Below are positions 30,298-43,733 of a stretch of DNA of 64,000 bases, piece after piece (the first letter of the stretch is position 1; the number at the start of each line of letters is the position of its first letter). A program made the position numbers and the translations under genes. Below the pieces are notes generated by a model. That model was not told where the DNA came from, did no database searches, and saw only the letters and a list, made by a program, of their open reading frames with translations. The stretch covers positions 76,817 to 140,816 of the forward strand of contig CAYREX010000003.1 in assembly GCA_964423505.1 (NCBI GenBank), written 5' to 3'. This DNA comes from an uncultured bacterium. GTDB taxonomy: Bacteria; Fermentibacterota; Fermentibacteria; Fermentibacterales; JCC-6.

Positions 30298-31497
30298 TCA
30301 CTGCGCCAGCAGGTCCGGCTTTCGTCCATGCCCGTCGTCCAGCCCCTTGACCACATGCAGGTAGACCCTGGTGGTCTCCAGGCTCCTGTGCCCCAGCAGC
30401 TCCTGTATCTCACAGAGGTCGACGCCCTTCATCAGCAGGTGCGTGGCGAACGAATGCCGAAGCGTGTGCACCGTGGCGTGCTTCCGTACCCCGGACTCCC
30501 TGACGGCCCTTCTCATAGCCCTCTGCACAACCGAGTAGTGCATGTGGTGACGCCGCACCGCACCCGACTCCGGGTCGACCGAGGGCCCAGACGCCGGGAA
30601 CAGGTACTGCCACTTCCACTCCAGGCCTGCCCCCGGGTACTTCCTCTCCAGAGCGAAGGGAAGCGATACCGGCACTCTCTCCCCGCTGAAGCCGTCCCTG
30701 ACCCGCTCCAGCTGCTCCTCGAGAGCAGGCACCAGAGACCTGCTGAGCAGGGTCACCCTGTCCTTGTCCCCCTTGCCTCCCCGGACCGTCAGGGAGCACC
30801 CGTCCGGGTCCAGGTCCTGCACGCGAAGCGACAGGGCTTCACCCAGCCTGAGACCGCTCGAGTAGATGATGCGCAGCACCAGCCCGGCCACTCCGTCCAC
30901 AAGCGACAGCACCCTGGACACCTCGGCAGGGGAGAGGACCACAGGCAGCCTCTTCGGCTTCCGAGCCCGAACCGCGTCGATGCCCTCCGGCTCCCTTCCC
31001 CATACGTTCCGGAACAGGAAGAGCACCGCGTTGAAGGCCTGATTCTGCGTTGACGATGCAACCTTCTTCCTCAGCGCCAGGAAGGACATGTAGTCTCGGA
31101 AGGAGGAATCCTCCCTCGGCTCCAGCTCCCGCTCCCGACAGAAGCAGAGGTACTTCCGGGACCAACCAGAGTAGGTCTTCACGGTGCTCCTGGAGTAGTG
31201 CCGGACCCGCAGCGCATCCACCAGCGCGGCTACCGGATCGGATGAAACCGAGACAGCCTCGTTACCCTCCTCGACACCCGCGAACCTGGAGTAGAGCTTC
31301 ACCGCATCCAGAGCCTGCCTGATCTGCCAGTCCTTCCGCCCCTCCTTCTCGAGCGCATCCGCATACTCATGCTCTCCCGGCCGTCCCAGAGCCCGGTAAT
31401 GCCTGACCCACCAGAGCATGAAAGGGACCTGCTTCTCCCGCACCAGCTTCAGCGACTGCAGATACTCCTCGAATCCATCAATAGAAGCCCGAGTCAT
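30298..31497 (-). CDS. intI: Integron integrase (IntI-family tyrosine recombinase) with about 70-aa N-terminal extension
   Basis: Long colinear similarity to IntI1 as I recall it: RLPVVLSPAEV, GLRLGEALSLRVQDLD, GKGDKDR, the IntI-specific insertion LPFALERKYPGAGLEWKWQYLFPAS, ...SGAVRRHHM, HTLRHSFATHLL and LGHRSLETTRVYLHV. Start set at the ATG 31497 preceded by GGTGGGAGGG. The 5' 100 codons of the longer ORF are AT-rich and belong to attI/cassette 1. Confidence 0.9.
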   Translation of the reverse strand: MTRASIDGFEEYLQSLKLVREKQVPFMLWWVRHYRALGRPGEHEYADALEKEGRKDWQIRQALDAVKLYSRFAGVEEGNEAVSVSSDPVAALVDALRVRHYSRSTVKTYSGWSRKYLCFCRERELEPREDSSFRDYMSFLALRKKVASSTQNQAFNAVLFLFRNVWGREPEGIDAVRARKPKRLPVVLSPAEVSRVLSLVDGVAGLVLRIIYSSGLRLGEALSLRVQDLDPDGCSLTVRGGKGDKDRVTLLSRSLVPALEEQLERVRDGFSGERVPVSLPFALERKYPGAGLEWKWQYLFPASGPSVDPESGAVRRHHMHYSVVQRAMRRAVRESGVRKHATVHTLRHSFATHLLMKGVDLCEIQELLGHRSLETTRVYLHVVKGLDDGHGRKPDLLAQ

Positions 31498-31527
31498 ATT
31501 GCCCTCCCACCTATACGGCTGCAGCAT

Positions 31528-31684
31528 AACAACGCCATTCCCAGCGTTAGTGTACGCATGTTCACTACCCCTTGTCAAGATACAAGCATTGACTAGCAGT
31601 AGCCGTGCAGCTATTCTCATGCAGCGTAACCAGGCAGCCGGCATACACAGCAGCCGCAGAATCATTGTTAGAGCTAAGGAAAAA
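31528..31684 (+). promoter_or_regulatory. Putative attI / cassette promoter (Pc) region of the integron
   Basis: Located between the intI start and the first cassette ORF. TTGACT (31589-31594), 17 bp, TATTCT (31612-31617) is oriented toward the cassettes. A GTTAGAG box at 31667-31673 resembles the attI1 GTTRRRY crossover site. A GTAC-N4-GTTC palindrome at 31551-31562 lies upstream of intI. Confidence 0.35.
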
Positions 31685-32638
31685 ATGGGAAACAGAAGTA
31701 GAGCTGAAATCTGGAAACAACAGAAATACAACAACTCCTGTGCTTGGGATTGCTTATCCATGCTTCTCAAAACGCAAGGAGTTGAAACAAGCTCCATCGA
31801 GCTTGTCGGTTCAACTCAGGTTCCCTACCAACTCCGTCTTCATCCAGAAGAGAATCGACTTACTGCAGGTATGCTCGTTCAAGCCGATGAAAATGTTAAT
31901 CTTGCACTCGGGCAATACGGCTTTAAACTTCAGAGCACTAGAGTATCGACAATCGCTGAATACGTTAAGCTCGCAGAGGAAACATTACTTTCTGGGGAAG
32001 CCTTCGTCACAAGTATTAAGAGACCAGATGATTTGCCAGGAAGACATGCCGTGGTTTTCACAGGATTAGAAGATTCAATCTTTAAAGGGCTTGATCCTGA
32101 TTGCCGTCTTGATCGAACTACGGACTATCACTACTCCGATGTTCATGATATCGTAACTCTTGATCTTGAGCAAGAAGAATTCCATCAAAGGGTTACTGGC
32201 GATACAGGGTATGTTCCACTTCTTGGTGTACTAGTTTCCTGCGACCCTTTCAAGATCAATCCTGAAATAATGAAAAATATGTTCAGTAGAAGTAAGGAAG
32301 CTCTTGATTTCTATGAGTCTGCTACAGGTGAACTTGACTTCCAGAGCTCCAAATCGATGCCTGTTATCTACAATGTGCTAAAACCTGTTTTATCTGACTT
32401 ACGAACAGCAATCGAAATCCGAGATGAGTATCAGAATCGAGATTCAGAGATTGCCTTATTCCTGAAAGAATTTGAAACCGGAATCCTGGAGTTTCGGAAA
32501 CTAACAAAGAATAATGAAGCAATACCGGAGAAACTTACCGAGAGATTGAGTGCTTCCCTTGCAAGATCTTACGAACTTCTTGAGAAGCACCTGTCTTTTG
32601 AGATGTACAGAAGAAAAGAGGCTCTAACCACTGAATGA
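31685..32638 (+). CDS. Cassette 1: putative papain-like (C39-like) cysteine peptidase
   Basis: AAGGA RBS then ATG at 31685. N-terminal QQKYNNSCAWDCLSMLLKTQG resembles the catalytic Cys block of C39/papain-fold peptidases. AT-rich codon usage. Stop lies inside attC1. Confidence 0.55.
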   Translation: MGNRSRAEIWKQQKYNNSCAWDCLSMLLKTQGVETSSIELVGSTQVPYQLRLHPEENRLTAGMLVQADENVNLALGQYGFKLQSTRVSTIAEYVKLAEETLLSGEAFVTSIKRPDDLPGRHAVVFTGLEDSIFKGLDPDCRLDRTTDYHYSDVHDIVTLDLEQEEFHQRVTGDTGYVPLLGVLVSCDPFKINPEIMKNMFSRSKEALDFYESATGELDFQSSKSMPVIYNVLKPVLSDLRTAIEIRDEYQNRDSEIALFLKEFETGILEFRKLTKNNEAIPEKLTERLSASLARSYELLEKHLSFEMYRRKEALTTE

Positions 32639-32700
32639 ACCTGTCACAGCCGTCAAGGTACGGGCTACGTAATACCTGTGCAGGTTATTCAGATTGTTCG
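32621..32700 (+). repeat. attC site 1
   Basis: GCTCTAACCACTGAATGAACCTG ... CTGTGCAGGTTATTCAGATTGTTCGGC. R''/L'' almost identical to attC11, 3' box GTTCGGC. Confidence 0.55.
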
Positions 32701-32717
32701 GCATAGGAAAGGGGATA

Positions 32718-33128
32718 GAAGTGCAGAAACTAATCACATGTGCGCTGATCGTTCTGACTTGTTCGATCGTGCTTGCGGGTGAGGTAGCGGACGAGGTGAC
32801 CTTCAGGACAGCGCAACCTGCTCCAACCGATATCATATCCTGGAGTTTCTTCTGGGTGATGCCTGAGATTGCACCGGATGCAACGCTTGAATATGCGGTG
32901 ATCCAGCCTGATGGTGAGGAGTATTTCCGGATGGCTATTCCTGCTGAAACTCCATCAGGAAGTCCAATTCGCTCGGATTTCCGTGAAGGTCTTGCCGGTG
33001 GCAATCCGGAGGTATTCAGCGGTCATAACATCCAGTTCACTTTCACAGTGGACATCGGCACAATCCAGTTCCCGGATGGTGCAACATTCCTCTTCGAGTT
33101 CACAGAAGTCGTCGAGGCAGTTAGATAG
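32718..33128 (+). CDS. Cassette 2: small secreted hypothetical protein
   Basis: GTG start after AAAGGGGA. Signal peptide LITCALIVLTCSIVLAG. Confidence 0.45.
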   Translation, partial: EVQKLITCALIVLTCSIVLAGEVADEVTFRTAQPAPTDIISWSFFWVMPEIAPDATLEYAVIQPDGEEYFRMAIPAETPSGSPIRSDFREGLAGGNPEVFSGHNIQFTFTVDIGTIQFPDGATFLFEFTEVVEAVR

Positions 33129-33134
33129 GGATTG

Positions 33135-33211
33135 CCGAACAACTGCATGAACCATCTACGAGCGGAGCTGTTTGAGCTAGGTGGTCGTAATGGTTATGCA
33201 GAGCGTTCGAA
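33135..33211 (+). repeat. attC site 2
   Basis: GCCGAACAACTGCATGAACCAT ... ATGGTTATGCAGAGCGTTCGAA. Family-1 attC, 3' box GTTCGAA. Confidence 0.6.
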
Positions 33212-33225
33212 GACGAGGAAGAAGC

Positions 33226-34074
33226 GATCGCGCTATGAAAGTCTCGTTCACACTGAAACCCGACCAGAAGTTGATTCTTCGCATTCTTCGCGAGGCGGGC
33301 AAAGTCCATTACCCAGTCCTACGCCGAGTTCTAGAGGCGATTGAGCATTCCGAGTCCGATTTCGACGCCTTCGTGAAGGCGGTCGCTGACAAAAGGGAGT
33401 TCGATTTCCGACCCGACTGGCAGAAACCAAAGCTGACGGAGTTGGAACGTACCCTCGAGGGATTGCTCTTCGTTGGTCTGATCGAACAGTCATTCCACTC
33501 GGATGGACAAATCAGAGTCTTCATGGGGGACACCGGCCTGACCAACAGTGACATTGCTCTCACGACCGAAGGCGAGAGAGTCGCCAAGAGCATCAAGGAG
33601 GAGCGACGCCTAATTCTGAGGCCGGCACCGACACGGCGCACCACAATCTTCGTCGCCTGTGCTTTCGGGCATGATGAGGTCGATTTGCTTTATGAGAAGC
33701 ACTTCCTTCCCGCGTGCCAAAGTGCGAACTACGAGGCAGTCCGAGTGGATATGACCGAACCGAAGCAGAGCATCACAGAAGCGATTCTCGAGGGTATTAC
33801 GGAGTGTGCTTGCGTCATCGCCGATCTGACATACGCTCGACCTTCCGTCTACTTCGAGGTCGGTCTTGCCCACGGCCTCGGAATTCCGCTGCTCTTGACG
33901 TGCAGATCAGATCACCACCGGGGCAAGGCGGACGACAAGAAGGTTCACTTTGACCTCGAACAGTACAAAATCAGTTTCTGGAAGCAAACACCCAAGGGTG
34001 ATTTCAGTTGGCCAAAGAACATGAAGCCAACTGCACGTCTGTCTGCATTGGTGCCAAAGCGGACGGGAGAATGA
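33226..34074 (+). CDS. Cassette 3: wHTH domain fused to a nucleoside-2-deoxyribosyltransferase-like (Ndt/TIR-like Rossmannoid) domain
   Basis: C-terminal TIFVACAFGHDEVDLLY...ECACVIADLTYARPSVYFEVGLAHGLGIPLLL matches the Ndt-fold signature (F-E-x-G-x-A, active-site Glu). The N-terminal about 110 aa are wHTH-like. ATG 33226 is the first start outside attC2. Confidence 0.6.
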   Translation, partial: DRAMKVSFTLKPDQKLILRILREAGKVHYPVLRRVLEAIEHSESDFDAFVKAVADKREFDFRPDWQKPKLTELERTLEGLLFVGLIEQSFHSDGQIRVFMGDTGLTNSDIALTTEGERVAKSIKEERRLILRPAPTRRTTIFVACAFGHDEVDLLYEKHFLPACQSANYEAVRVDMTEPKQSITEAILEGITECACVIADLTYARPSVYFEVGLAHGLGIPLLLTCRSDHHRGKADDKKVHFDLEQYKISFWKQTPKGDFSWPKNMKPTARLSALVPKRTGE

Positions 34075-34085
34075 CAAAGAAGCTT

Positions 34086-34172
34086 CGAACAAGAGCGTGG
34101 AGCTCGACTTCGGGTTAGCCGCGCCGCTTCGCTCTGCGGCACCCCCGAAGCGGCTCACGCTCGACGTTAGCT
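34086..34172 (+). repeat. attC site 3
   Basis: CGAACAAGAGCGTGGAGCTCGAC ... GCTCACGCTCGACGTTAGCT. Third sequence family, 3' box GTTAGCT. Confidence 0.55.
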
Positions 34173-34179
34173 GGAAGGG

Positions 34180-34953
34180 ATGCAAATGCCTATCGGCAGA
34201 AATCGTGTTTTTGAAATCATCGGAACAAAGCCAAGAAATCCACAATGGGCCTGGTGCGCAATTTCTCCGAACTACGAAAGAGTTGTATTTACTCTATGGG
34301 CTGATGAATTACTCGGTGACAGATATCTATTGTTTAGAGATCGACGAACCAATTCGCTAAACCGCAGCGAAAGAGATCTAAAAGAGAAGCTCGATCTTGC
34401 AATGGAGATGAACATTCCAGCTTATGGGTTGGTATGCGAAGCGCGCAATGTAAATGCACCAATAAGAAAAATAGGAAAGGTACATGCAGATTATCTTGTC
34501 AAATTGAGATTGCAGAAGGACGAGGAAGGGATTTATGCAATAGATATTGGCAAGGTTCAACTTGCTGAGATTGTGAGTGAAGAGAAGGCTAAGAGAGAGG
34601 CAACGGAGAATAACGGTCTTAACGATATAAATTCAATCCCACCAGGTTCTGAGTCTCCTGATAGAGCCCATGTTGAGGGCTTAATAGTCAAGAGGGACCC
34701 CAAAGTCAGGCGGTATGTTATTGAACAAGCTGAAGGGAAGTGTGAGTTCTGCGGGAAGCAAGGGTTCCAAATGGACTCAGGTAGGAGGTATCTAGAAGCT
34801 CACCATGTAATCACACTCTCTAATCAGGGAGCTGATACTGTGGAAAATGTTATTGCATTATGTCCGGAACACCATAGAGAAGCACATTATGGGGTGAATG
34901 CAGAGGAGTTGGAAGAACAATTCTTGGAATGTATTAACAACAGAAACGGGTAA
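34180..34953 (+). CDS. Cassette 4: HNH endonuclease with unknown about 150-aa N-terminal domain
   Basis: C-terminal CEFCGKQGF...LEAHHVITLSNQGADTVENVIALCPEHHREAHYG is a canonical HNH finger. The N-terminal domain is uncharacterised. Confidence 0.75.
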   Translation: MQMPIGRNRVFEIIGTKPRNPQWAWCAISPNYERVVFTLWADELLGDRYLLFRDRRTNSLNRSERDLKEKLDLAMEMNIPAYGLVCEARNVNAPIRKIGKVHADYLVKLRLQKDEEGIYAIDIGKVQLAEIVSEEKAKREATENNGLNDINSIPPGSESPDRAHVEGLIVKRDPKVRRYVIEQAEGKCEFCGKQGFQMDSGRRYLEAHHVITLSNQGADTVENVIALCPEHHREAHYGVNAEELEEQFLECINNRNG

Positions 34954-34984
34954 GAGTCGCCTTCTGGAGACACACTATTATCAG

Positions 34985-35032
34985 CTAACAACAAAATGCA
35001 GCAGAACTGCGTGCAGGTGTTCAGAAGTAAGT
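34985..35032 (+). repeat. Possible short attC site 4
   Basis: GCTAACAACAAAATGCAGCAGAACTGCGTGCAGGTGTTCAGA. R''-like GCTAAC, short imperfect stem, 3' GTTCAGA. Confidence 0.35.
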
Positions 35033-35162
35033 GTATCGCAGTCTGCTGATTTTGAGTGTTGTGGGATTCAATGGCCGGCCTGCTGGCTAGCCCGGCGAAG
35101 GATGACAAGAGGACAAAGAGAACATATTTATGGTGTAGGCAATGCGAACAGATAGACACGGG

Positions 35163-35366
35163 ATGAAAATGGAATACGGATCAAAATCAATGCCCGCCCT
35201 AATCGCCAGCCCAGAACTCTATGCATCCCTTGCGAAGAACAAGCAGACCTACTGGACAACAGGAACCGGCCCGGCTCGAAGGCACGGAGCTTGGAGTATA
35301 GAGCTGCTGGAATACTGCCATAGTGGAGTGAATGGTATCAAGAAATATATGAGATCAAAGGCATAA
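35163..35366 (+). CDS. Cassette 5: possible small ORF (67 aa)
   Basis: Only ORF in the about 500-bp cassette between attC4 and attC5. Weak. Confidence 0.2.
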   Translation: MKMEYGSKSMPALIASPELYASLAKNKQTYWTTGTGPARRHGAWSIELLEYCHSGVNGIKKYMRSKA

Positions 35367-35462
35367 CGACATAAAGAAAACAAGGATAAAGCAAAGAGAA
35401 CAAAGGACATAGGACAAAGACAGGAGCTTGGGCGCAGGCAAGCAAGGAGACAATAGCTGCCC

Positions 35463-35543
35463 ACAACAACAGCATGAACCAGGCGCGGGGGGCAGTTGGA
35501 CGTGCGAGGGTAGTTCCCGCGCTGGTTATGCTGGATGTTATGT
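35463..35543 (+). repeat. attC site 5
   Basis: CACAACAACAGCATGAACCAGGCG ... CGCGCTGGTTATGCTGGATGTTATGT. Family 1, 3' box GTTATGT. Confidence 0.6.
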
Positions 35544-35562
35544 GAGATAGGGAGTATACGAA

Positions 35563-36243
35563 ATGGAAACAGTAGACATCATTTTAGAAGTACTGTTGTT
35601 ACTCGGTTTGCTGTATCTTGCTCTCTTCAAATCGTATTTTAAGGAGAAAGGGAAAAACCTAGCAACTCGGGAAGATATCCAGGAGATCACTTCTCTTGTT
35701 GAGACCTTAAGAGCAAAAATAGAATACTCATTGCAGGCGAAATTGGTACTAAGGCGAGAAGAGCATGAATCACTATTACACTACTACTCTTGTCTATCTA
35801 AGTGGATTCACACAATATCGAGCTTCAGTTTTGCAGGAATAACATACGATACATTACACATGATTAATGAAAGAATCAGTAGTGTGAACATATGCTATTC
35901 GGAAACGATATTGGCATTTTCAAAAGTAGAACTACTGGTTAATAATGATAAGTTGAGAGCAGAGGGCCATGGTCTGATTAGAAGAGTACTAAAATATCAA
36001 AATAGAACAATTAAGATGTGTGGTGACTATCATCTCTTATGTCTTGAGATCCATGCGGAAGAGAAAAGATTAAAGGATGGTGAGCGTGTTGAGGAATGGG
36101 CTAAAGTAATTGCAAAGCAACAAATAGCAATAAAGAAATACTATGAAGAGCAAGCTAGCGAATATGGAACTCTGTTAAGGTACATAATACCACATATGGA
36201 GACTATATCAGCACATTTAGAAGAGATCGTTAAGGAGGAGTGA
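35563..36243 (+). CDS. Cassette 6: hypothetical protein with N-terminal TM helix
   Basis: AT-rich ORF with TM helix ILEVLLLLGLLYLALF. Follows attC5 by 20 bp. Confidence 0.5.
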   Translation: METVDIILEVLLLLGLLYLALFKSYFKEKGKNLATREDIQEITSLVETLRAKIEYSLQAKLVLRREEHESLLHYYSCLSKWIHTISSFSFAGITYDTLHMINERISSVNICYSETILAFSKVELLVNNDKLRAEGHGLIRRVLKYQNRTIKMCGDYHLLCLEIHAEEKRLKDGERVEEWAKVIAKQQIAIKKYYEEQASEYGTLLRYIIPHMETISAHLEEIVKEE

Positions 36244-36299
36244 TAACTACTAATCACAAGAATAAATGCAATGAGATGTGGGCAAAACAGAGACCAGCA

Positions 36300-36379
36300 C
36301 ATAACCACAGCATGAACCAGCCGCGGGGCAGTTGAATATGCGAGGTTGATTCCCGCGCTGGTTATGCTGAGTGTTACAG
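36300..36379 (+). repeat. attC site 6
   Basis: ACCACAGCATGAACCAGCCGCGG ... CGCGCTGGTTATGCTGAGTGTTACAG. Family 1. Confidence 0.6.
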
Positions 36380-36523
36380 AAGTAGGACGGCGGCGTCTGA
36401 GAACATAGAGCAAACAGAATCGGGCACATCGGAAATCGGGCCCATAGAACAAGAAAAAGCCGCCGCCGTGAAAAAATAGGAAACCGGAGATCGGACAACC
36501 GGACAGCGACAGAGGAGACAGAG

Positions 36524-36600
36524 CCTGTAACAATGGGCTGTAGCTGAATCGCGCGACTGTACCGTCAACCTGTGCAATCAGCTAAGCCCAAGCGTTGTGG
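36524..36600 (+). repeat. attC site 7
   Basis: GTAACAATGGGCTGTAGCTGAATCGC ... CAATCAGCTAAGCCCAAGCGTTGTGG. Family 2, like attC8. Confidence 0.55.
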
Positions 36601-36626
36601 GTTGAAATGAAAAGAGGCATTCTAAG

Positions 36627-36869
36627 TTGGGAGGACAGCGTATGAAAGCGAAGAAGATATACTGGGCGAACCCCCATTCTGATGGAGGTTGGGCAGTTCA
36701 GAAATCTAGATTTGGAGGAACGATATCCAAGCATTCTACCCAATCCAGTGCATGGAAAACTGCTCGCCGCATGGCTTGCGGTACGGAATCAGATGCAATA
36801 CTGCAGGACCAGCAGAAGAGAATTGTGACAAGACATACATACTCAAATGAGACTTTAGAAGAAGATTAA
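36627..36869 (+). CDS. Cassette 8a: DUF2188-like small protein
   Basis: KKIYWANPHSDGGWAVQKSRFGGTISKHSTQSSAWKTARRMA fits the DUF2188 pattern as I recall it. Confidence 0.5.
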   Translation: MGGQRMKAKKIYWANPHSDGGWAVQKSRFGGTISKHSTQSSAWKTARRMACGTESDAILQDQQKRIVTRHTYSNETLEED

Positions 36870-36870
36870 T

Positions 36871-37731
36871 ATGCGAGCATATATACCTCTTGCGATAGTC
36901 TATGACTTCGATGGAACACTTGCTCCTGGCAACATGCAGGAAAGAGATTTCATTCCAGCAATTGGCATGACACAACAAGCGTTCTGGGATGAAGTCAATA
37001 GTGAAGCAAAACAACATCAGGCAGATAATATCCTCGTATATATGAAATTGATGCTAGATAAAGCTAGACAGGCTCAAGTAACAGTTCAAGAGGATGATTT
37101 CAAAGACTATGGACGTCGCCTGTCATTCTACGAAGGGATCTTGCCTAATGAAGAACAGTCAGATCCAGGTTGGTTCGCGAGAATCAATTATTATGGCAGA
37201 GGTGCTAGCATAGCAGTCAAGCACTATGTTGTCTCTTCAGGTATCCGAGAGATGATAAAGGGTACACGAATCGCAAACCAGTTTGAGGCGATTTTTGCAT
37301 CCTCATTTTGCTATGAACATCATGGTATTGCTGTATGGCCAGCCTTGGCTCTTAATTACACATCCAAGACGCAATATCTATTTAGGATTAATAAGGGCTG
37401 TCTTGATGTTAGCGAACATGTGCAAATTAACAAATACTTACCCGAAAATGATAGACCAGTACCGTTTAGGAACATGATCTATATTGGCGATGGAGCTACT
37501 GACATTCCTTGTATGCGAGTAGTAAAGGACAGGGGAGGTTGTACAATTGCTGTGTATAAGCCCCACACTCCTGGAGCCAGGGCCAATGTTCAACAACTTG
37601 TTAAAGAAGGTAGGGCAAACTGCATTGCATCAGCGAAATACAACGAAGGCAGTACTCTTGATAAGATAGTCAAGACATACATAGATCATCTGCAGTTCTA
37701 CTATGCATATAAGCGCTTGCAAGAAACATAG
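36871..37731 (+). CDS. Cassette 8b: HAD-superfamily hydrolase (phosphatase-like)
   Basis: HAD motif I VYDFDGTL, motif II VVSSG, motif IV IYIGDGATDIPCM. Starts 2 bp after the DUF2188 stop, in the same cassette. Confidence 0.7.
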   Translation: MRAYIPLAIVYDFDGTLAPGNMQERDFIPAIGMTQQAFWDEVNSEAKQHQADNILVYMKLMLDKARQAQVTVQEDDFKDYGRRLSFYEGILPNEEQSDPGWFARINYYGRGASIAVKHYVVSSGIREMIKGTRIANQFEAIFASSFCYEHHGIAVWPALALNYTSKTQYLFRINKGCLDVSEHVQINKYLPENDRPVPFRNMIYIGDGATDIPCMRVVKDRGGCTIAVYKPHTPGARANVQQLVKEGRANCIASAKYNEGSTLDKIVKTYIDHLQFYYAYKRLQET

Positions 37732-37733
37732 AG

Positions 37734-37818
37734 CCCACAACAAGCGGCTGTAGCGGAATTGCTGCCGGCCTGGGGGGGGGCTGAGTCTATCGCAATCCGC
37801 TAAGCCACAGCGTTATGC
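37734..37818 (+). repeat. attC site 8
   Basis: CACAACAAGCGGCTGTAGCGGAATTGC ... GCAATCCGCTAAGCCACAGCGTTATGC. Family 2. Confidence 0.6.
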
Positions 37819-37837
37819 GTAAATACGAACCGGAGAA

Positions 37838-38602
37838 ATGGAGATCATGACAATACCGGATGAAACGAAAATACTGGATGAAGATGAAGTCCAGCGTCTT
37901 CTAGGGTTAATGCTAGGCGCTCTCCCTTATACTGTAAAGGAAATGTTAGTACTGAAAGATATCAATCCGGAGGATTCGATTCGTATTAGATCGCTCTCAA
38001 AATCTTTTCAGAAAGCCCGTGAAACTGCCAAGGAAATGCTTAAGGATACATCCAGCAAAACCAAGATTCCTCAATATCGAATCCGAGCAATCGAAGAAGG
38101 CAAGTTGGCTGAGATCAAACCGGAATTCCTAAAACAGCTAAGCCGATACTTCGGACTAGATGAATGGTGTTCTCGTTGGGCAACCGTGAACACAGAACTA
38201 GCATCTGGACTTGGGATGTTTTCCTGGGTAGAACTCGGGAAACGAAGAAATGGGAAAGGATTGCCCGTATCTGTATTGTCAGATTCAGAGAAACAGCTTA
38301 AGGATTTCGTGGAATCCCGCCGACCTGAAGAGCACATAAGATCGGAATTGGATATTGGTTATCGGATCACAGGTAAAAGTTTCGAGATATTTGAAATCCG
38401 GCCAAGATGGAAGCAACCGGACATTACACAAGAAATCTCAGTTGCCAAGGCAACCTATGTTAAAAGTAGAAAAATATGGAAACTCTATTGGATGCGCGCT
38501 GATTTGAAATGGCACAGGTATGATCCTCTACCTGACACAAAATCGCTCCAGGATGTGCTTAACGAAATTGGCGAGGATCCGTATTGCTGTTTTTGGGGAT
38601 GA
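37838..38602 (+). CDS. Cassette 9: XRE-type HTH fused to a DUF3024-like C-terminal domain
   Basis: Central IRAIEEGKLAEIKPEFLKQLSRYFGLD (Cro/C1-type HTH). The C-terminal W-rich block KIWKLYWMRADLKWHRYDPL...DPYCCFWG resembles DUF3024. Confidence 0.5.
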   Translation: MEIMTIPDETKILDEDEVQRLLGLMLGALPYTVKEMLVLKDINPEDSIRIRSLSKSFQKARETAKEMLKDTSSKTKIPQYRIRAIEEGKLAEIKPEFLKQLSRYFGLDEWCSRWATVNTELASGLGMFSWVELGKRRNGKGLPVSVLSDSEKQLKDFVESRRPEEHIRSELDIGYRITGKSFEIFEIRPRWKQPDITQEISVAKATYVKSRKIWKLYWMRADLKWHRYDPLPDTKSLQDVLNEIGEDPYCCFWG

Positions 38603-38606
38603 AAGA

Positions 38607-38685
38607 GCGCATAACCAACGCATGAACCAGACGCTTGTAAGGGAATAGGTTAGGGTTACAGCGCTGGTTACGCGTATTGTTAAGT
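38607..38685 (+). repeat. attC site 9
   Basis: GCGCATAACCAACGCATGAACCAGACG ... CAGCGCTGGTTACGCGTATTGTTAAGT. Family 1. Confidence 0.6.
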
Positions 38686-38706
38686 AGCGATAGAAGGAAG
38701 AGCATA

Positions 38707-39381
38707 ATGGTACCTATTCTGTATGGGATAGCGAGTGGAATCGCATTACTGTTAATCAAGATGTTATGGGTTAAGGGACATTATAGATTCAAGATGAAGA
38801 TAGTGAATAATTCATTTCCTGTAAGCGGTGCAAATGTAGCAGTTATTCTTGGCAGTAAGTACTTCGAGAGCGAGAGCTCAAGGCAACTGCTATATGTACC
38901 GCTCACGGGTGTATCAGCATATGCAAAGCTATCAACATTGCTCAGTAAGTATGGATCCGATGTTAGTTTCTATGTGGATAAGACCGTACCAAAGGATAAG
39001 CGCATTACCTTTGAGATATGCATAGGTGGAAAGCATAGTAGCGTTCGCACAGAGCACTACTTGAAGAAGCATTGTTCTCGGATGTTTCACCCCAACGGTA
39101 GTACTCTAACTCCCAACGAAGCGCGAATTGTAAAACTAGACAGAACGTTCGAAGATGGCAAGAAGAAGTCAGTCCTCATTATCTATGGGCAGAACCGATT
39201 TGACACCATGTGTGCAATAGCCTACTTCTGCGAGTACTTCGAAGAACTGGTGCGGAAGCAGTTTGCTAGAGATCATGCAGCAATCCGTCTGGAGACAGAT
39301 CCTCAACTTGGGCATTATGATGCGGAGTATAAGGCCGATGACACACACTTGATAGACCTATGTCAAGTAGATGCTACTTAA
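38707..39381 (+). CDS. Cassette 10: hypothetical protein with N-terminal TM anchor
   Basis: ATG 38707 is the first start outside attC9. TM helix ILYGIASGIALLLIKMLWV. Confidence 0.5.
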   Translation: MVPILYGIASGIALLLIKMLWVKGHYRFKMKIVNNSFPVSGANVAVILGSKYFESESSRQLLYVPLTGVSAYAKLSTLLSKYGSDVSFYVDKTVPKDKRITFEICIGGKHSSVRTEHYLKKHCSRMFHPNGSTLTPNEARIVKLDRTFEDGKKKSVLIIYGQNRFDTMCAIAYFCEYFEELVRKQFARDHAAIRLETDPQLGHYDAEYKADDTHLIDLCQVDAT

Positions 39382-39454
39382 CAAGCGGCTGCAGCGGCAT
39401 TGCGGTAGGGTAGCAACCGGTATAGGTGCAATCCGCTGAGCCTTAGTGTTAGCA
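39378..39454 (+). repeat. attC site 10
   Basis: TAACAAGCGGCTGCAGCGGCATTGC ... GCAATCCGCTGAGCCTTAGTGTTAGCA. Family 2, nearly perfect stem. Confidence 0.6.
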
Positions 39455-39469
39455 TGGAAATGAGGAAGA

Positions 39470-40543
39470 ATGGGAAAAGCAGCGATTTTCCTTGGTGCTG
39501 GCGCTTCTAAGGCGGAGGGTGCTCCTCTGCAAGGAGAGTTGTTCACTGAATACTTTGCATCTGATGCATTCAAGAATAGCTATAAAGATATTGACAGAGA
39601 ACTTGCAACGTTTTTCCTCTGTAACTTCAGAATTGACCTAGACCATCAAGACATATCATCGATTAGCTTTCCCACATTCGAGGAAGTTCTTGGTTTGGTT
39701 GATCTTGCCATTCTTAGAAAAGAATCATTCCGAGAGTTTGAGATTGAGAATAGAGCATCCAACAGTGGGCGCTTAAGATTCATAGGCCAGTATCTTGTAT
39801 TTCTGTTGGCAAGGGTTCTAGATGATAAGCTGAAGGGTCACAACGGCATTCATCAGAAATTGGTACGAACACTACATGATACTGGTATTCTAAGAGATGT
39901 GACTTTTATAACTACAAATTATGACATACTTATCGACAATGCATTAGTAAAGCTGGAAAAGCATGATGTTGATGTTGACTACGGAATTGAGTTCCGTAAT
40001 TTCGGAACTCAAAACAATTGGCGACGCCCAAGAATGGATAAGAAGGTATCACTATACAAACCGCATGGATCGTTAAATTGGCTGCTATGCCCAACTTGCA
40101 GTGAACTCGATATTACACCGAAAGAGAAGGGAGTTGTCAGACTTATCTCTGATTTTGCAAATGCAACATGTCCAGAGTGCGAAAGTGTTTATGTGCCTCT
40201 CATTGTACCTCCGATATATTACAAAGATATGAGCAATGTATTCCTGAGTTCAATATGGAATCGAACTGATGCTTCTTTACGGAAAGTGGACCATGTAATC
40301 TTCTGCGGATATTCCTTTCCTGATGCTGATATGCATATTAAGTATTTAATGAAAAGAGCTCAGACTAATCGTAAAAACCCTCTTAGAATTACGGTTATGA
40401 ACTATCACCCAGGAAAAACAGAGTCAGAATCCAGAAGTGAAGAGAATAGGTACAAGCGGTTCTTAGGAAAACAAGTGAAGTATACAGATAAATCATTTGA
40501 ATGGTTTGCAGATAATCCTATGGATGTTTTGGGAAATTCTTGA
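39470..40543 (+). CDS. Cassette 11: standalone SIR2-like protein (SIR2_2 / DUF4020-type, predicted NAD+-consuming effector)
   Basis: N-terminal MGKAAIFLGAGASKAEGAPL (GAGxS motif of the SIR2_2 clade) and ...KPHGSLNW downstream. 357 aa, single gene between attC10 and attC11. Confidence 0.7.
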   Translation: MGKAAIFLGAGASKAEGAPLQGELFTEYFASDAFKNSYKDIDRELATFFLCNFRIDLDHQDISSISFPTFEEVLGLVDLAILRKESFREFEIENRASNSGRLRFIGQYLVFLLARVLDDKLKGHNGIHQKLVRTLHDTGILRDVTFITTNYDILIDNALVKLEKHDVDVDYGIEFRNFGTQNNWRRPRMDKKVSLYKPHGSLNWLLCPTCSELDITPKEKGVVRLISDFANATCPECESVYVPLIVPPIYYKDMSNVFLSSIWNRTDASLRKVDHVIFCGYSFPDADMHIKYLMKRAQTNRKNPLRITVMNYHPGKTESESRSEENRYKRFLGKQVKYTDKSFEWFADNPMDVLGNS

Positions 40544-40544
40544 T

Positions 40545-40622
40545 GCTAACCACTGCATGAACCAGCTACGAACAGATCTGATTGACCCGGGGTAGTCGTG
40601 CTGGTTATACAGAATGTTAGGC
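40545..40622 (+). repeat. attC site 11
   Basis: GCTAACCACTGCATGAACCAGC ... GTGCTGGTTATACAGAATGTTAGGC. 3' box GTTAGGC fits the GTTRRRY consensus and the 5' box is close to its reverse complement. Confidence 0.65.
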
Positions 40623-40641
40623 AGGAAAGGAGATACATGCC

Positions 40642-41070
40642 ATGTCGCTACACGCATCCGAGATTCTGGCATGTCCCAAGTGCGGACATAAACAGGCAAC
40701 TCTCATCTGGCAGTCGCTGAATGTTACCCTTGACCCCGGCCAGAAGCAGAACCTCTTTGATGGAAAGATAAATGTACTTGAATGCACGCAGTGCGGGAAC
40801 AAGGCATTCGTCGATGCACCTTTTCACTATCACGACATGAATCTCGAGTTTTACGTGCGGTATGTTCCCTTGGCATCTCTAGAGCATCCAGAGACATTTG
40901 ACGACTTTCTTGCGAATGGATTTCCATCCATGGAAGAGAACGAAGATATGGGAATACCGGCGGATTCATACTTGCGCACTATCCATATTGTTTTTGATAT
41001 GGGTGAATTGGTGCGCTATGTGATGTTCCGCGAATGTCTGGCCAACATCAAGCAAGGTAAGAAGGCCTAA
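40642..41070 (+). CDS. Cassette 12: CpXC-domain zinc-ribbon protein
   Basis: CPKCGHKQ ... CTQCGNKAF pairs characteristic of CpXC proteins. Confidence 0.6.
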   Translation: MSLHASEILACPKCGHKQATLIWQSLNVTLDPGQKQNLFDGKINVLECTQCGNKAFVDAPFHYHDMNLEFYVRYVPLASLEHPETFDDFLANGFPSMEENEDMGIPADSYLRTIHIVFDMGELVRYVMFRECLANIKQGKKA

Positions 41071-41126
41071 CCATCGAATAGAGGGTATCGGCGCATACGC
41101 GCCGAACCGTCATTGACACGTTCGGC
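41065..41126 (+). repeat. attC site 12 (short)
   Basis: GCCTAAC (41065-41071) ... perfect hairpin GCCGAACCGTCATTGACACGTTCGGC ... 3' box GTTCGGC. Confidence 0.45.
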
Positions 41127-41192
41127 TACCAGAACCGGACTTGCATCTCAGAGAGAGTATATGTATCTACATAGTAGAGACGGGAGGATACT

Positions 41193-41435
41193 ATGCTTGC
41201 ACGAATCCAGAAATGGGGCAACAGCCTAGCGGTTCGAATCCCCAAAGCCTTCGCGAAGGAAATGAACGTGTCTGATGGTGGAGCTGTCAACATGACAATC
41301 GATGACGGAAAGATCGTCATCAGTCCTGAGATAGAGCAGGTCTACCGACTGGATGACCTTCTGGAGGAGATAACCTCGGAGAATCTTCATGCTGAGGTCG
41401 AGTCCGGAGAGGTAGTTGGGCAGGAGATTTGGTGA
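41193..41435 (+). CDS. mazE: Cassette 13a: MazE/AbrB-type antitoxin
   Basis: IQKWGNSLAVRIPKAF (SpoVT/AbrB swapped-hairpin motif). Overlaps mazF by 7 bp. Confidence 0.75.
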   Translation: MLARIQKWGNSLAVRIPKAFAKEMNVSDGGAVNMTIDDGKIVISPEIEQVYRLDDLLEEITSENLHAEVESGEVVGQEIW

Positions 41436-41776
41436 AGACAGATGAGTGCTGCCCTGGGAGGGGGGATATCGTCTGGCTCTCCTTCACACCCCAGGCAGGC
41501 CATGAACAGGCAGGCATACGTCCTGCACTAGTCCTGTCTCCCAAATCGTACAACCGGAAAACAGGTCTTGCATTGTACTGTCCGGTTACGACAGTAGTGA
41601 AAGGCTATCCGTTCGAGGTTGCCATTCCACCTGACCTTGAGGTTTCCGGAGTTATTCTATCGGACCAAGTGAAGAGCCTGGACTGGAGAGCACGAAAGGC
41701 AGAGTTAATCTGCAGACTCCCAGATGCCGTGACCAGAGAAGTACTCGGCAAGGTGGGCACTCTTGTTCGGGACTAG
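41429..41776 (+). CDS. mazF: Cassette 13b: MazF/PemK-family endoribonuclease toxin
   Basis: GDIVWLSFTPQAGHEQAGIRPALVLSPKSYNRKTGLALYCPVTT matches PemK/MazF. Confidence 0.8.
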   Translation: MVKTDECCPGRGDIVWLSFTPQAGHEQAGIRPALVLSPKSYNRKTGLALYCPVTTVVKGYPFEVAIPPDLEVSGVILSDQVKSLDWRARKAELICRLPDAVTREVLGKVGTLVRD

Positions 41777-41779
41777 AGA

Positions 41780-41859
41780 GCCGAACAGCAGCATGAACCA
41801 GCCAACAGGGCAGAGCTGATCGAACGGGTGTTCCGTGCTGGTTATGCTGAGTGTTCGAG
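41780..41859 (+). repeat. attC site 13
   Basis: GCCGAACAGCAGCATGAACCAGCC ... CGTGCTGGTTATGCTGAGTGTTCGAG. Family 1. Confidence 0.6.
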
Positions 41860-41908
41860 TTCCGGCATGACTTGACAACCACCACCATAGAGGTATAGAT
41901 ATTATACC

Positions 41909-42169
41909 ATGGTGTTCGAATACGATGCTCGTAAGAGCAAGAGAAACTTGGAGAAGCACGGGATCGACTTCGAGGAGTCGCAGCTTCTCTGGGATGATCC
42001 GGACCTGCTGGAGATTCCGGCAAGGACCGAAGATGAAACGCGATTCATGGTGATCGGTCGGATAGACAGCTCCCATTGGTCTGGGATCATCACCTATCGC
42101 GGAGAGGCGGTTCGAATCATCTCCGTCCGCAGATCCCGTAACGAGGAGGTGGTGCTGTATGAAGGCTAA
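41909..42169 (+). CDS. brnT: Cassette 14a: BrnT (DUF497) ribonuclease toxin
   Basis: MVFEYDARKSKRNLEKHGIDFEESQLLWDDP matches the BrnT N-terminus. Confidence 0.75.
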   Translation: MVFEYDARKSKRNLEKHGIDFEESQLLWDDPDLLEIPARTEDETRFMVIGRIDSSHWSGIITYRGEAVRIISVRRSRNEEVVLYEG

Positions 42170-42386
42170 GGACCTGGACAAGAAGTTCGATGACGGTGAG
42201 GATGTCCTCAGATACCTCGAACTCAGCAAGGCCCGTCGTGTTGAGCAGGAGCAGAAGCGAGTCAATGTGGACTTCCCCATTTGGATGATTCACTCGCTGG
42301 ACAAGGAAGCAAAGCGACTGGGTATTCCCAGGCAGTCCCTGATCAAGATGTTGATCGCCAGGCATATCGAGGAAGCCAGAGCATAG
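42159..42386 (+). CDS. brnA: Cassette 14b: BrnA (CopG/RHH-like) antitoxin
   Basis: Overlaps brnT by 11 bp. C-terminal ribbon-helix-helix-like IPRQSLIKMLIARHIEEA. Confidence 0.7.
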   Translation: MKAKDLDKKFDDGEDVLRYLELSKARRVEQEQKRVNVDFPIWMIHSLDKEAKRLGIPRQSLIKMLIARHIEEARA

Positions 42387-42391
42387 AGACT

Positions 42392-42462
42392 CGAACAAGC
42401 GGCTGCATTGGTCTTGCAGCATTGCGACACCTGACAGAGGACAACGCATAGTGCTTCTTAGT
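42392..42462 (+). repeat. attC site 14 (diverged)
   Basis: CGAACAAGCGGCTGCATTGGTCTTGCAGCATTGCGAC... has a family-2-like 5' half and a degenerate 3' half. Confidence 0.4.
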
Positions 42463-43116
42463 GGACACCCAGATCCGCGCACTTCTGAGAGGAGCCCGAG
42501 CACCAGATATTCCTGAGGTTGAGTACCCACTCTATCTCATGCGGTCTTCCGTGCCCAGGCTCCGGTGGAAGGATGTTATGGCGGCAAGCATAATGCAAGA
42601 GCACGGGCGGAGCGTCCGTAGCCTTGCGCGGGATCTGGGTGTCCATTGACAGGAGTATCTGGTATTCGAGTCTATCACGGTCCTGGATACCGGGTCTGCT
42701 TCAAGAATCGGGGGAAGAGCCTGGTGATCATATTGGCCGGTGGTGACAAGCGGACACGAAAGAAGATCGAGAAGGCGTTGCGCCTGGCACGAGATCTATC
42801 GGAGAGAGAGAAGAGAATTAGCAGGACCAAGACTACTCGATTCGAAACCGCTGAGCATCGTCGAGCTCCAGAGAAAATGGCCGCACATCTTGAAGCATGC
42901 CTTGAGGAGTCCAACGGAGATGCGGCGTTTGTAGCGAAGGCACTCGGAGATATCGCGAAAGCAAAGGGAATGACGCAGGTTGCACGCGATGCTGGTCAGT
43001 CTCGAGAGCCTGTACAAGGCTCTGTCGGGCAAACGTACACCCCGGTTCGACACCCTTCTGAGAGTAGCACATGCCCTCGGGATGGAGCTTCACGCGGCAC
43101 CACTGAATCGCTGAAA
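42461..43116 (+). pseudogene. Cassette 15a: decayed higB-like (addiction-module killer, COG3657) / higA-like (antidote) toxin-antitoxin pair
   Basis: IRVYHGPGYRVCFKNRGKSLVIILAGGDKRTRKKIEKALRLARDL matches the killer C-terminus. It runs without a stop into the antidote sequence KTTRFETAEH...MAAHLEACLEESNGDAAFVAKALGDIAKAKGMTQVARDAG. The antidote C-terminus (SLYKALSGKRTPRFDTLLRVAHALGMELHAAPLNR, ending 43116) is in a different frame after a 2-nt loss in a GAGAG run near 43003. The killer N-terminus is also out of frame. Confidence 0.5.
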
Positions 43117-43193
43117 TCGACTGGCCAACAACAGCATGCAGCTGGAAAGCTGCTGATGTTGAGCGTTCGGCCTTATGAAATGAGAGGTGCAGC

Positions 43194-43610
43194 ATGGGAG
43201 CTATAGCAGACTCGATCATCGCGTACGCGAAACCGCTGCTCGACGAAGCTGATGGTTCACTCGAGGACATGAACAATGCCTTGTCACTTGCTCAGCTATG
43301 TTGGAATCTCGCACTGTTACCGGAAAAGGAACGTGACGCAAGACTCGCAAAGATGCAGTCGGCCCTCGCGATGGATGACACGGAATTCGAGGATTTCCGG
43401 CAATCGATCGTCCTGCCGATGATCCAGAGGCACCATGACATGTTTCCTAACATGCCCAGGCACGGGTCTGCGAAGGCGTCGAGAGCAAGGGTGCAACCGC
43501 AGCGACGGGCGGCGGCAACGCCGCAGGCAAAGAGATATCCTGGAACTGCACGCAACGCGCCGTGCCCGTGCAATAGCGGAAAGAAGTACAAACGTTGTTG
43601 CGGACGGTAG
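43194..43610 (+). CDS. Cassette 15b: UPF0149/YecA-like protein with C-terminal SEC-C zinc motif
   Basis: C-terminal APCPCNSGKKYKRCCGR is the SEC-C metal-binding motif. Confidence 0.6.
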   Translation: MGAIADSIIAYAKPLLDEADGSLEDMNNALSLAQLCWNLALLPEKERDARLAKMQSALAMDDTEFEDFRQSIVLPMIQRHHDMFPNMPRHGSAKASRARVQPQRRAAATPQAKRYPGTARNAPCPCNSGKKYKRCCGR

Positions 43611-43651
43611 GCTGGCATCGTTGTCCACGGAACGCGTGCGAAGAGCTGGCC

Positions 43652-43733
43652 AAACAAGCGCCTGCAGTTGAACGGGCACGTCCGGCCGCTTCGCGGGGTC
43701 GCGCACCCGTCTACTGAGGCGCACCGTTATGCC
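43652..43733 (+). repeat. attC site 15 (GC-rich variant)
   Basis: CAAACAAGCGCCTGCAGTTGAACGGGCACG ... CGCACCCGTCTACTGAGGCGCACCGTTATGC. Family-2-like ends, 3' box GTTATGC. Confidence 0.45.

Follow-up and report, generated by a model that had tools for sequence, protein, structure and literature searches.

Modification-dependent nucleases act as barriers to phages and plasmids and find use in mapping epigenetic marks (MspJI, AbaSI and EcoWI-type enzymes), and their value as tools hinges on the range of available reader domains. EcoKMcrA, ScoMcrA and TagI are modification-dependent (type IV) HNH enzymes: EcoKMcrA is a 5mC/5hmC-dependent (Y5mCGR) HNH restriction endonuclease, ScoMcrA and SprMcrA are phosphorothioate- and 5mC-dependent and combine SBD and SRA domains with the HNH, and TagI, like ScoA3IV, is an SRA-HNH protein. 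The type IV enzyme composed of a reader and an HNH nuclease is already well known as a kind, and so is the idea that integrons act as stores of compact defence genes. In McrA the N-terminal position is occupied by the NEco domain (PMC6182155, PMC7145662), and residues 147–276 constitute the dimerising HNH domain, including a segment upstream of the zinc finger (PMC6182155). In VcaM4I the N-terminal position is occupied by an EVE domain that flips and reads 5mC/5hmC, and this reader together with the linker autoinhibits a toxic HNH (PMC7897488). According to a recent preprint, compact defence systems, type IV restriction included, are documented in integron cassettes, and single-gene nuclease cassettes with uncharacterised N-domains serve as integron defences (bioRxiv 10.1101/2024.07.02.601686).

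The window (the whole 64-kb stretch of DNA analysed here) carries, on a mobile integron cassette, a gene whose product is on balance probably a stand-alone restriction nuclease of a type IV-like kind, equipped with a new reader domain (Table 1). An ORF with an HNH finger had been reported here in a preliminary description of the DNA, and both are present, with a Pfam HNH match and a finger that is kept across 38 homologues. Full-length homologues share about 50% identity with the predicted protein, with E-values down to 5e-83, which confirms the ORF as a genuine gene far beyond chance. An identical protein (P0001, 100% identity) is on record with 255 aa, read from the second ATG at 34186. This second ATG is the likelier start, since the Shine-Dalgarno-like motif directly abuts ATG 34180 but is suitably upstream of ATG 34186. 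Relatives already carry the labels 'McrA' or 'HNH endonuclease' in the source databases because of their HNH module.

Table 1. Coordinates of the integron, the HNH cassette and neighbouring features in the window
Feature	Position	Strand	Basis or remark
Integron integrase IntI ORF	30298..31797	-	TIGR02249 328.6 bits, cut-off 265
Cassette array, 15 attC sites	32621..43732	+	Covariance model R1, pair counts, composition
TIR-like / nucleoside-deoxyribosyltransferase-like cassette	33235-34074		Adjoins HNH gene upstream
attC of preceding cassette	34083..34172	+	Alignment A6 member; R1 54.8 bits, E 1e-12
Shine-Dalgarno-like GGAAGGG	34173..34179	+	Read from sequence; 6 nt 5' of ATG 34186
HNH gene CDS	34180..34953	+	257 aa from ATG 34180
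Orphan N-terminal domain, aa 1-143	34180..34608	+	Putative DNA or modification reader
Linker, acidic, aa 144-170	34609..34689	+	Conserved D149, G156, P160
EcoKMcrA HNH-homologous stretch, aa 152-253	34633..34938	+	phmmer, PADLOC, Foldseek
HNH (beta-beta-alpha-metal) core, aa 188-236	34741..34887	+	Pfam PF01844
HNH cassette's own attC	34983..35064	+	A6 member; R1 61.6 bits, E 1.5e-14
PDC-S34 cassette (HAD-like hydrolase)	36871-37731		PADLOC, E 2e-115
PDC-S43 cassette (HTH + DUF3024)	37838-38602		PADLOC, E 2.5e-46
SIR2 cassette (SIR2_2 domain)	39470-40543		PADLOC SIR2, E 9e-15
Extra attC, outside training set	41779-41859	+	R1 42.7 bits
Extra attC, outside training set	43122-43171	+	R1 33.6 bits
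Extra attC, outside training set	43648-43732	+	R1 26.8 bits

The integron setting is supported by covariation, by gene content and by base composition. Twelve attC-like sites were located by eye and by script and aligned (A6), and the R''/R' and L''/L' pairing was counted. Pairing holds in 84.7% of cells across the 12 sites but in 29–37% when the 3' partner is slid; both-side changes occur in 12 of 19 pairs, and the covariation score is 0.41, where the slid controls give 0.04–0.12. A covariance model (R1) built from the 12 aligned sites finds 15 attC sites in the 64 kb, every one on the + strand and none outside the array, and three of these matches were absent from the training set. The three additional sites carry the array into sequence with rising GC. 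The cassette array has a GC of 0.48 compared with 0.68 for the flanking chromosome, and the individual cassettes range from 43 to 50% GC in a host of about 68%, so that the window presents a high-GC chromosome with a low-GC island. The integrase ORF matches Phage_integrase and Phage_int_SAM_4 in Pfam; its true start is probably internal, because IntI homology covers only aa 192–484 (about 30346–31224). The stretch 30298–43732 is a complete chromosomal integron with at least 15 attC sites on the + strand and intI on the - strand.

The HNH cassette is number four in this array, with a length of about 892 bp (34167–35058) and a GC of 0.43. It begins at the G|TT crossover (34167) in the attC of the preceding cassette, whose R'' lies within CTTCGAAC and whose R' is GTTAGCT (34166–34172), and it ends at the G (35058) of its own attC, whose R' is GTTGTGG (35058–35064). 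The HNH gene is the sole ORF between the two sites. The preliminary description had called the gene cassette-borne and single in its cassette, and this holds, given attC on both sides, pairing support from 12 sites and intI on the opposite strand. Further along the array, the attC sites at 35460–35543 and 36299–36379 are near-identical paralogues. Two inter-attC intervals are short, one of about 395 bp (35065–35459) with only a 74-aa ORF and one of about 145 bp (36380–36523) without an ORF; they could represent cassettes that are empty or degenerate, or could encode small peptides or RNAs.

Several neighbouring cassettes have a defence-like character. The product of the upstream cassette scores 28.7 bits with Nuc_deoxyrib_tr, against a Pfam cut-off of 28.8, and gives a weak match to a TIR effector model; its gene probably starts at M19 (about 33235), a start preferred because the listed ORF start at 33181 falls inside the preceding attC. 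The PDC-S34 and PDC-S43 cassettes adjoin one another, and both families are PADLOC candidate defence. The integron defence cassettes described in two preprints (Darracq et al. 2024; 'Mobile Integrons Encode Phage Defense Systems') are, in the available parts of these sources, likewise compact single-gene nucleases in defence-like arrays. The systems named in those parts include Sirona and Nemetona, which are NinG-like HNH proteins, and the orphan-domain family described here is not among them. Unlike integron defence cassettes, most relatives of the window's HNH protein sit outside integrons.

By homology, the C-terminal ~110 residues (aa ~150–257) are an intact EcoKMcrA-type HNH module, N-terminal extension included. 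The PF01844 match has a score of 34.3 bits (cut-off 21.4, E 2.6e-8), and the finger comprises C188-x2-C191, H208-H209, N223, C228-x2-H231-H232 and H236. Residues C188, H208, H209, N223, C228, H232 and H236 are invariant in the 38 homologues (alignment A1), with conservation of at least 90% at C191 and H231. The predicted Zn ligands are C188, C191, C228 and H231, and the predicted catalytic residues are H209, N223 and H232/H236. In phmmer, aa 152–253 align with residues 181–283 of 6ghc_A (EcoKMcrA, E 1.2e-23), the closest solved relative, and the PADLOC type IV model mREase_IV PDLC03656 matches the same stretch (E 3e-24). Foldseek with the full-length model returned EcoKMcrA 6ghc (1e-9), ScoMcrA (2e-7) and TagI (3e-5) as best matches, and the sequence match to ScoMcrA 5ZMM (E 1e-4) lies in the HNH module. 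This kinship agrees with the two-domain plan of modification-dependent HNH nucleases that had been proposed for the protein.

The comparison with EcoKMcrA (PDB 6GHC, from the E. coli e14 prophage) extends beyond the nuclease itself. The two proteins are of similar size (277 aa, and 257 aa here) and follow the same plan, in which a specificity domain of ~143 aa is joined by a short linker to a C-terminal HNH. Both are single genes without a methyltransferase on a mobile carrier, which is a prophage for EcoKMcrA and an integron cassette here. The linker of the window's protein is partly disordered in the full-length model (aa 154–167, pLDDT <50). ScoMcrA/SprMcrA (5ZMM) and TagI (6GHS) have a related HNH module and share the common reader plus HNH logic. 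No SBD was detected in the window's protein with NCBIfam PT-DNA_restrict NF045808, which reaches 39.1 bits (cut-off 180) in a match limited to profile positions 158–227, the HNH region.

The N-terminal domain is where the protein departs from the described enzymes. The preliminary description could not assign this domain, and it stays unassigned after profile searches of Pfam (query and 29 members), NCBIfam, PADLOC, PHROGs and PDB sequences, which gave zero matches. AlphaFold2 run on the N-domain alignment gave a model with pLDDT 91.7 and pTM 0.83, in which the elements follow the order alpha1, beta1–3, alpha2, beta4–7, alpha3. The motifs of the domain are N20-x-(R/Q)-W-(S/A)-W25-C-A, F37-T-x-W40-x-D42, G63, G83-x-x-C86 and R96, and conservation across the whole family is confined to W25, W40, G63 and G83. 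Family-wide conservation reveals no nuclease motif in the domain, and its median pI is 8.5.

Structural comparison of the N-domain model with the PDB and BFVD by Foldseek gave no match at E ≤1e-3. Hjc-type resolvases of Holliday junctions come out best (E 0.013, probability 0.9, TM 0.39–0.47), followed by weaker matches to SRA, YTH, Lon-N and MspJI (TM ≤0.3); a viral 'ScoMcrA-like SRA' protein reaches E 2.9e-3 with a TM of 0.30. An SRA, PUA, EVE or YTH fold had been suggested for the domain and is not confirmed, with no sequence match and weak Foldseek matches (E 0.03–0.5, TM ≤0.3) that those to Hjc slightly exceed. Set against the EVE domain of VcaM4I in particular, the N-domain has neither an EVE/PUA sequence match nor a significant Foldseek match. 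Homology to NEco was considered and rejected at hhalign probabilities of 0.6%, 1.6% (single sequence) and 0.23% (A7 against profile A8, a shallow profile, as the NEco search gave 7 close relatives only). EcoKMcrA 6GHC is not among the best 50 Foldseek matches of the isolated N-domain, and with the full-length model the 251-column alignment to 6ghc_A scores no better than the 156-column alignment to 6ghc_B. The secondary-structure order of NEco diverges from that of the orphan domain after beta4 (PMC6182155). An active PD-(D/E)XK nuclease in the domain was likewise rejected: the topology and the weak Foldseek matches are compatible with one, but the conserved (D/E)xK residues are missing. Identification with the first half of DUF3427 was also set aside, as it came from a single case (P0253), in which a partial DUF3427 match follows the domain at 24.8 bits against a threshold of 27.7.

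An exhaustive profile search with the N-domain recovered 802 clusters at 50% identity (E ≤1e-3), 267 of which reach E ≤1e-10. Among representatives of at least 200 aa, 67 of 83 match HNH_2 and 48 of 83 match HNH. In the exhaustive search a McrA-type C-terminal module is present in 41 of 76 such representatives and a VcaM4I-type linker plus HNH (6YEX) in 28; the remaining seven have neither. On the strength of these two groups, the orphan domain is placed where McrA and VcaM4I, both characterised nucleases that depend on modification, have their reader. The HNH of the window's protein is McrA-type, unlike that of VcaM4I. In a sister branch (P0193, P0245 and others) the C-terminal portion consists of the linker helix and HNH of VcaM4I (6yex E 8.6e-26 and 1.5e-17), and BLASTP of the window's protein against P0193 aligns the N-domain alone. 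Compared with the VcaM4I/TspA15I EVE-HNH group (6YEX), which is specific for 5hmC/5mC, this branch thus puts the orphan domain where EVE sits, and the occurrence of the same N-domain in place of EVE strengthens its reading as a sensor.

Other arrangements of the domain are rarer. Fusions to PLD-like, HEPN-like and DUF3427 segments are single, sub-threshold matches, and fusion to a ScoMcrA-like segment is likewise rare and sub-threshold; little weight is placed on any of these. Stand-alone 144-aa copies of the N-domain exist without a nuclease domain (P0146; L115 4001–4709, L116 3153–3861), and in view of these the domain may also function without a nuclease. An attC-like match lies about 220 nt downstream of P0146, and the surrounding genes (BrnT/BrnA, TIR/SEFIR, NYN) resemble a cassette array, so that this copy is apparently cassette-borne as well. 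In a Burkholderiales-rich branch (P0048–P0095, ~400 aa, A2) a conserved N-terminal extension of ~100 aa and a low-complexity linker precede the orphan domain, and Pfam does not annotate this extension. Another set of proteins (P0104–P0120) has 50–59% identity in the McrA-type HNH module only, at a coverage of 38–50%, and N-terminal halves that differ from the orphan domain and are likewise unannotated. Since these proteins match in the HNH only, the McrA chassis may carry several undescribed reader domains.

Relatives of the HNH protein occur in Verrucomicrobiota, Bacteroidota, Alpha-, Beta- and Gammaproteobacteria, Cyanobacteria and Myxococcota. Their loci were seeded on the HNH motifs of the full-length alignment (A1) and then filtered for N-domain coverage, because the N-domain alignment (A3) had no sufficiently conserved stretch. 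The GC of the gene is lower than that of the locus in 39 of 44 N-domain loci (median difference 0.055), and the window's HNH gene stands at 0.43 against 0.68 for its locus; these differences are signs of horizontal acquisition. Examination of 134 neighbours of 43 relatives, together with the flanks of L010, revealed no common partner gene and no neighbour family that spans clades. The 79-aa ORFs upstream of two relatives were considered as a partner and are unrelated to each other. No DNA methyltransferase is found among the 25 commonest neighbour families in this set, the last of which have 2 members, nor does the HNH cassette contain a cognate methyltransferase of the kind that marks type II restriction-modification. 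One relative sits in a defence island between HsdR/LmuB (type I restriction and Lamassu) and McrBC, and HsdR adjoins relatives in about five loci. In seven Sphingomonadales loci (L031, L033, L037, L038, L046, L049 and L053) the gene lies between those for methylmalonyl-CoA mutase and the propionyl-CoA carboxylase alpha subunit, apparently a conserved hotspot for insertion within a housekeeping operon. Matches resembling attC were found near relatives only at L076, L078 and marginally L045, with a model trained on the sites of this window that may miss other attC types.

In the mechanism that we propose, the protein would form a dimer through the McrA-type HNH module, as McrA does, and would cut DNA by means of a divalent metal at H209/N223/H232–H236. 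The N-terminal 143 residues, which have no catalytic signature, would by their place in the architecture act as a targeting or reader module, probably recognising a modified base or else some other hallmark of foreign DNA, with a reading surface to which W25 and W40, conserved throughout the family, and basic residues, R96 among them, may contribute. Recognition of the mark would recruit the HNH dimer or relieve its inhibition, leading to cleavage of invading phage or plasmid DNA, and host DNA would be spared, being without the mark. Because host DNA would lack the mark, no methyltransferase partner would be needed. We infer the modification dependence of the window's protein from architecture and context together. 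A further conjecture, somewhat unlikely, is that the N-domain represents an undescribed fold class of modification reader, unrelated to PUA/EVE/SRA/YTH, NEco, winged-helix and SBD domains and recruited independently onto McrA-type and VcaM4I-type HNH nucleases, that might read a mark beyond those of known readers, for example a hypermodified phage base.

Other accounts of the protein assign the N-domain a different ligand. It might sense a phage protein or an infection signal and thereby free an autoinhibited, non-specific HNH, which would make the protein an abortive-infection or toxin nuclease. Autoinhibition of a toxic HNH by reader and linker, as in VcaM4I (PMC7897488), is consistent with such an arrangement, as are the lack of a recognisable DNA-reader fold in the N-domain, the Abi-type effectors (SIR2 and TIR-like) in nearby cassettes and the defence role that the integron preprint gives to single-gene nuclease cassettes with uncharacterised N-domains. 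We nevertheless consider it unlikely: both HNH chassis that bear the N-domain are known as DNA-modification-dependent restriction enzymes, the domain is basic overall, and a co-conserved sensor or antitoxin gene was not found among the neighbours. Alternatively, the weak Hjc-type likeness of the predicted fold might mean that the domain recognises DNA structure. The protein would then be a sequence- or structure-specific nuclease that acts independently of modification, either as a solitary nicking or restriction enzyme or as a recombination or repair factor. In the structural search the domain comes closest to Holliday-junction resolvases with a PD-(D/E)XK fold, the alpha-beta-beta-beta-alpha-beta order fits the core of that fold, and the Sphingomonadales gene resides within a housekeeping operon. 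However, the Hjc match is below significance and the catalytic residues of the fold are missing, a nuclease directed at a sequence would cut its own genome unless a methyltransferase protected it, and the patchy distribution, low GC and location in cassettes and islands argue for an accessory defence gene over a repair gene, so that we regard this possibility as quite doubtful.

The least probable account, and a highly improbable one, is that of a selfish homing-type HNH endonuclease with the N-domain as the DNA-binding module for its homing site. HNH domains are frequent in homing endonucleases, and the HNH region matches many phage HNH PHROGs. The N-domain, however, has no PHROG match, and tblastn with it was empty in 50,697 phage genomes and 72,556 plasmids; full-length relatives number only 2–3 among the 2.9 million viral contigs of IMG/VR. 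The preliminary description had named a homing-endonuclease N-module with homologues in phages or introns as the case that would count against its reading, and this is contradicted by the lack of PHROG matches and the near absence of relatives from phages. In addition, the gene is flanked by attC and not by intron or intein sequence, and its HNH is of the McrA type; together with the near absence from phages, these features largely refute a homing endonuclease.

A stand-alone type IV-like nuclease thus remains the reading that we favour, and what is new in it is the domain family in the reader slot, which numbers about 800 clusters at 50% identity, lacks a counterpart in Pfam, the PDB and PHROGs, and is used on two chassis. 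Because the biochemistry of both chassis is already understood, identification of the ligand is directly testable. The locus also adds a concrete case to the view that integrons stockpile defence genes, here as low-GC cassettes in a high-GC environmental bacterium. A 5mC-reading N-domain with a divergent fold of the PUA or Hjc type would make the family an ordinary addition to a known class of enzymes; a fold that is new, or recognition of an unusual modification, would give the finding more weight.
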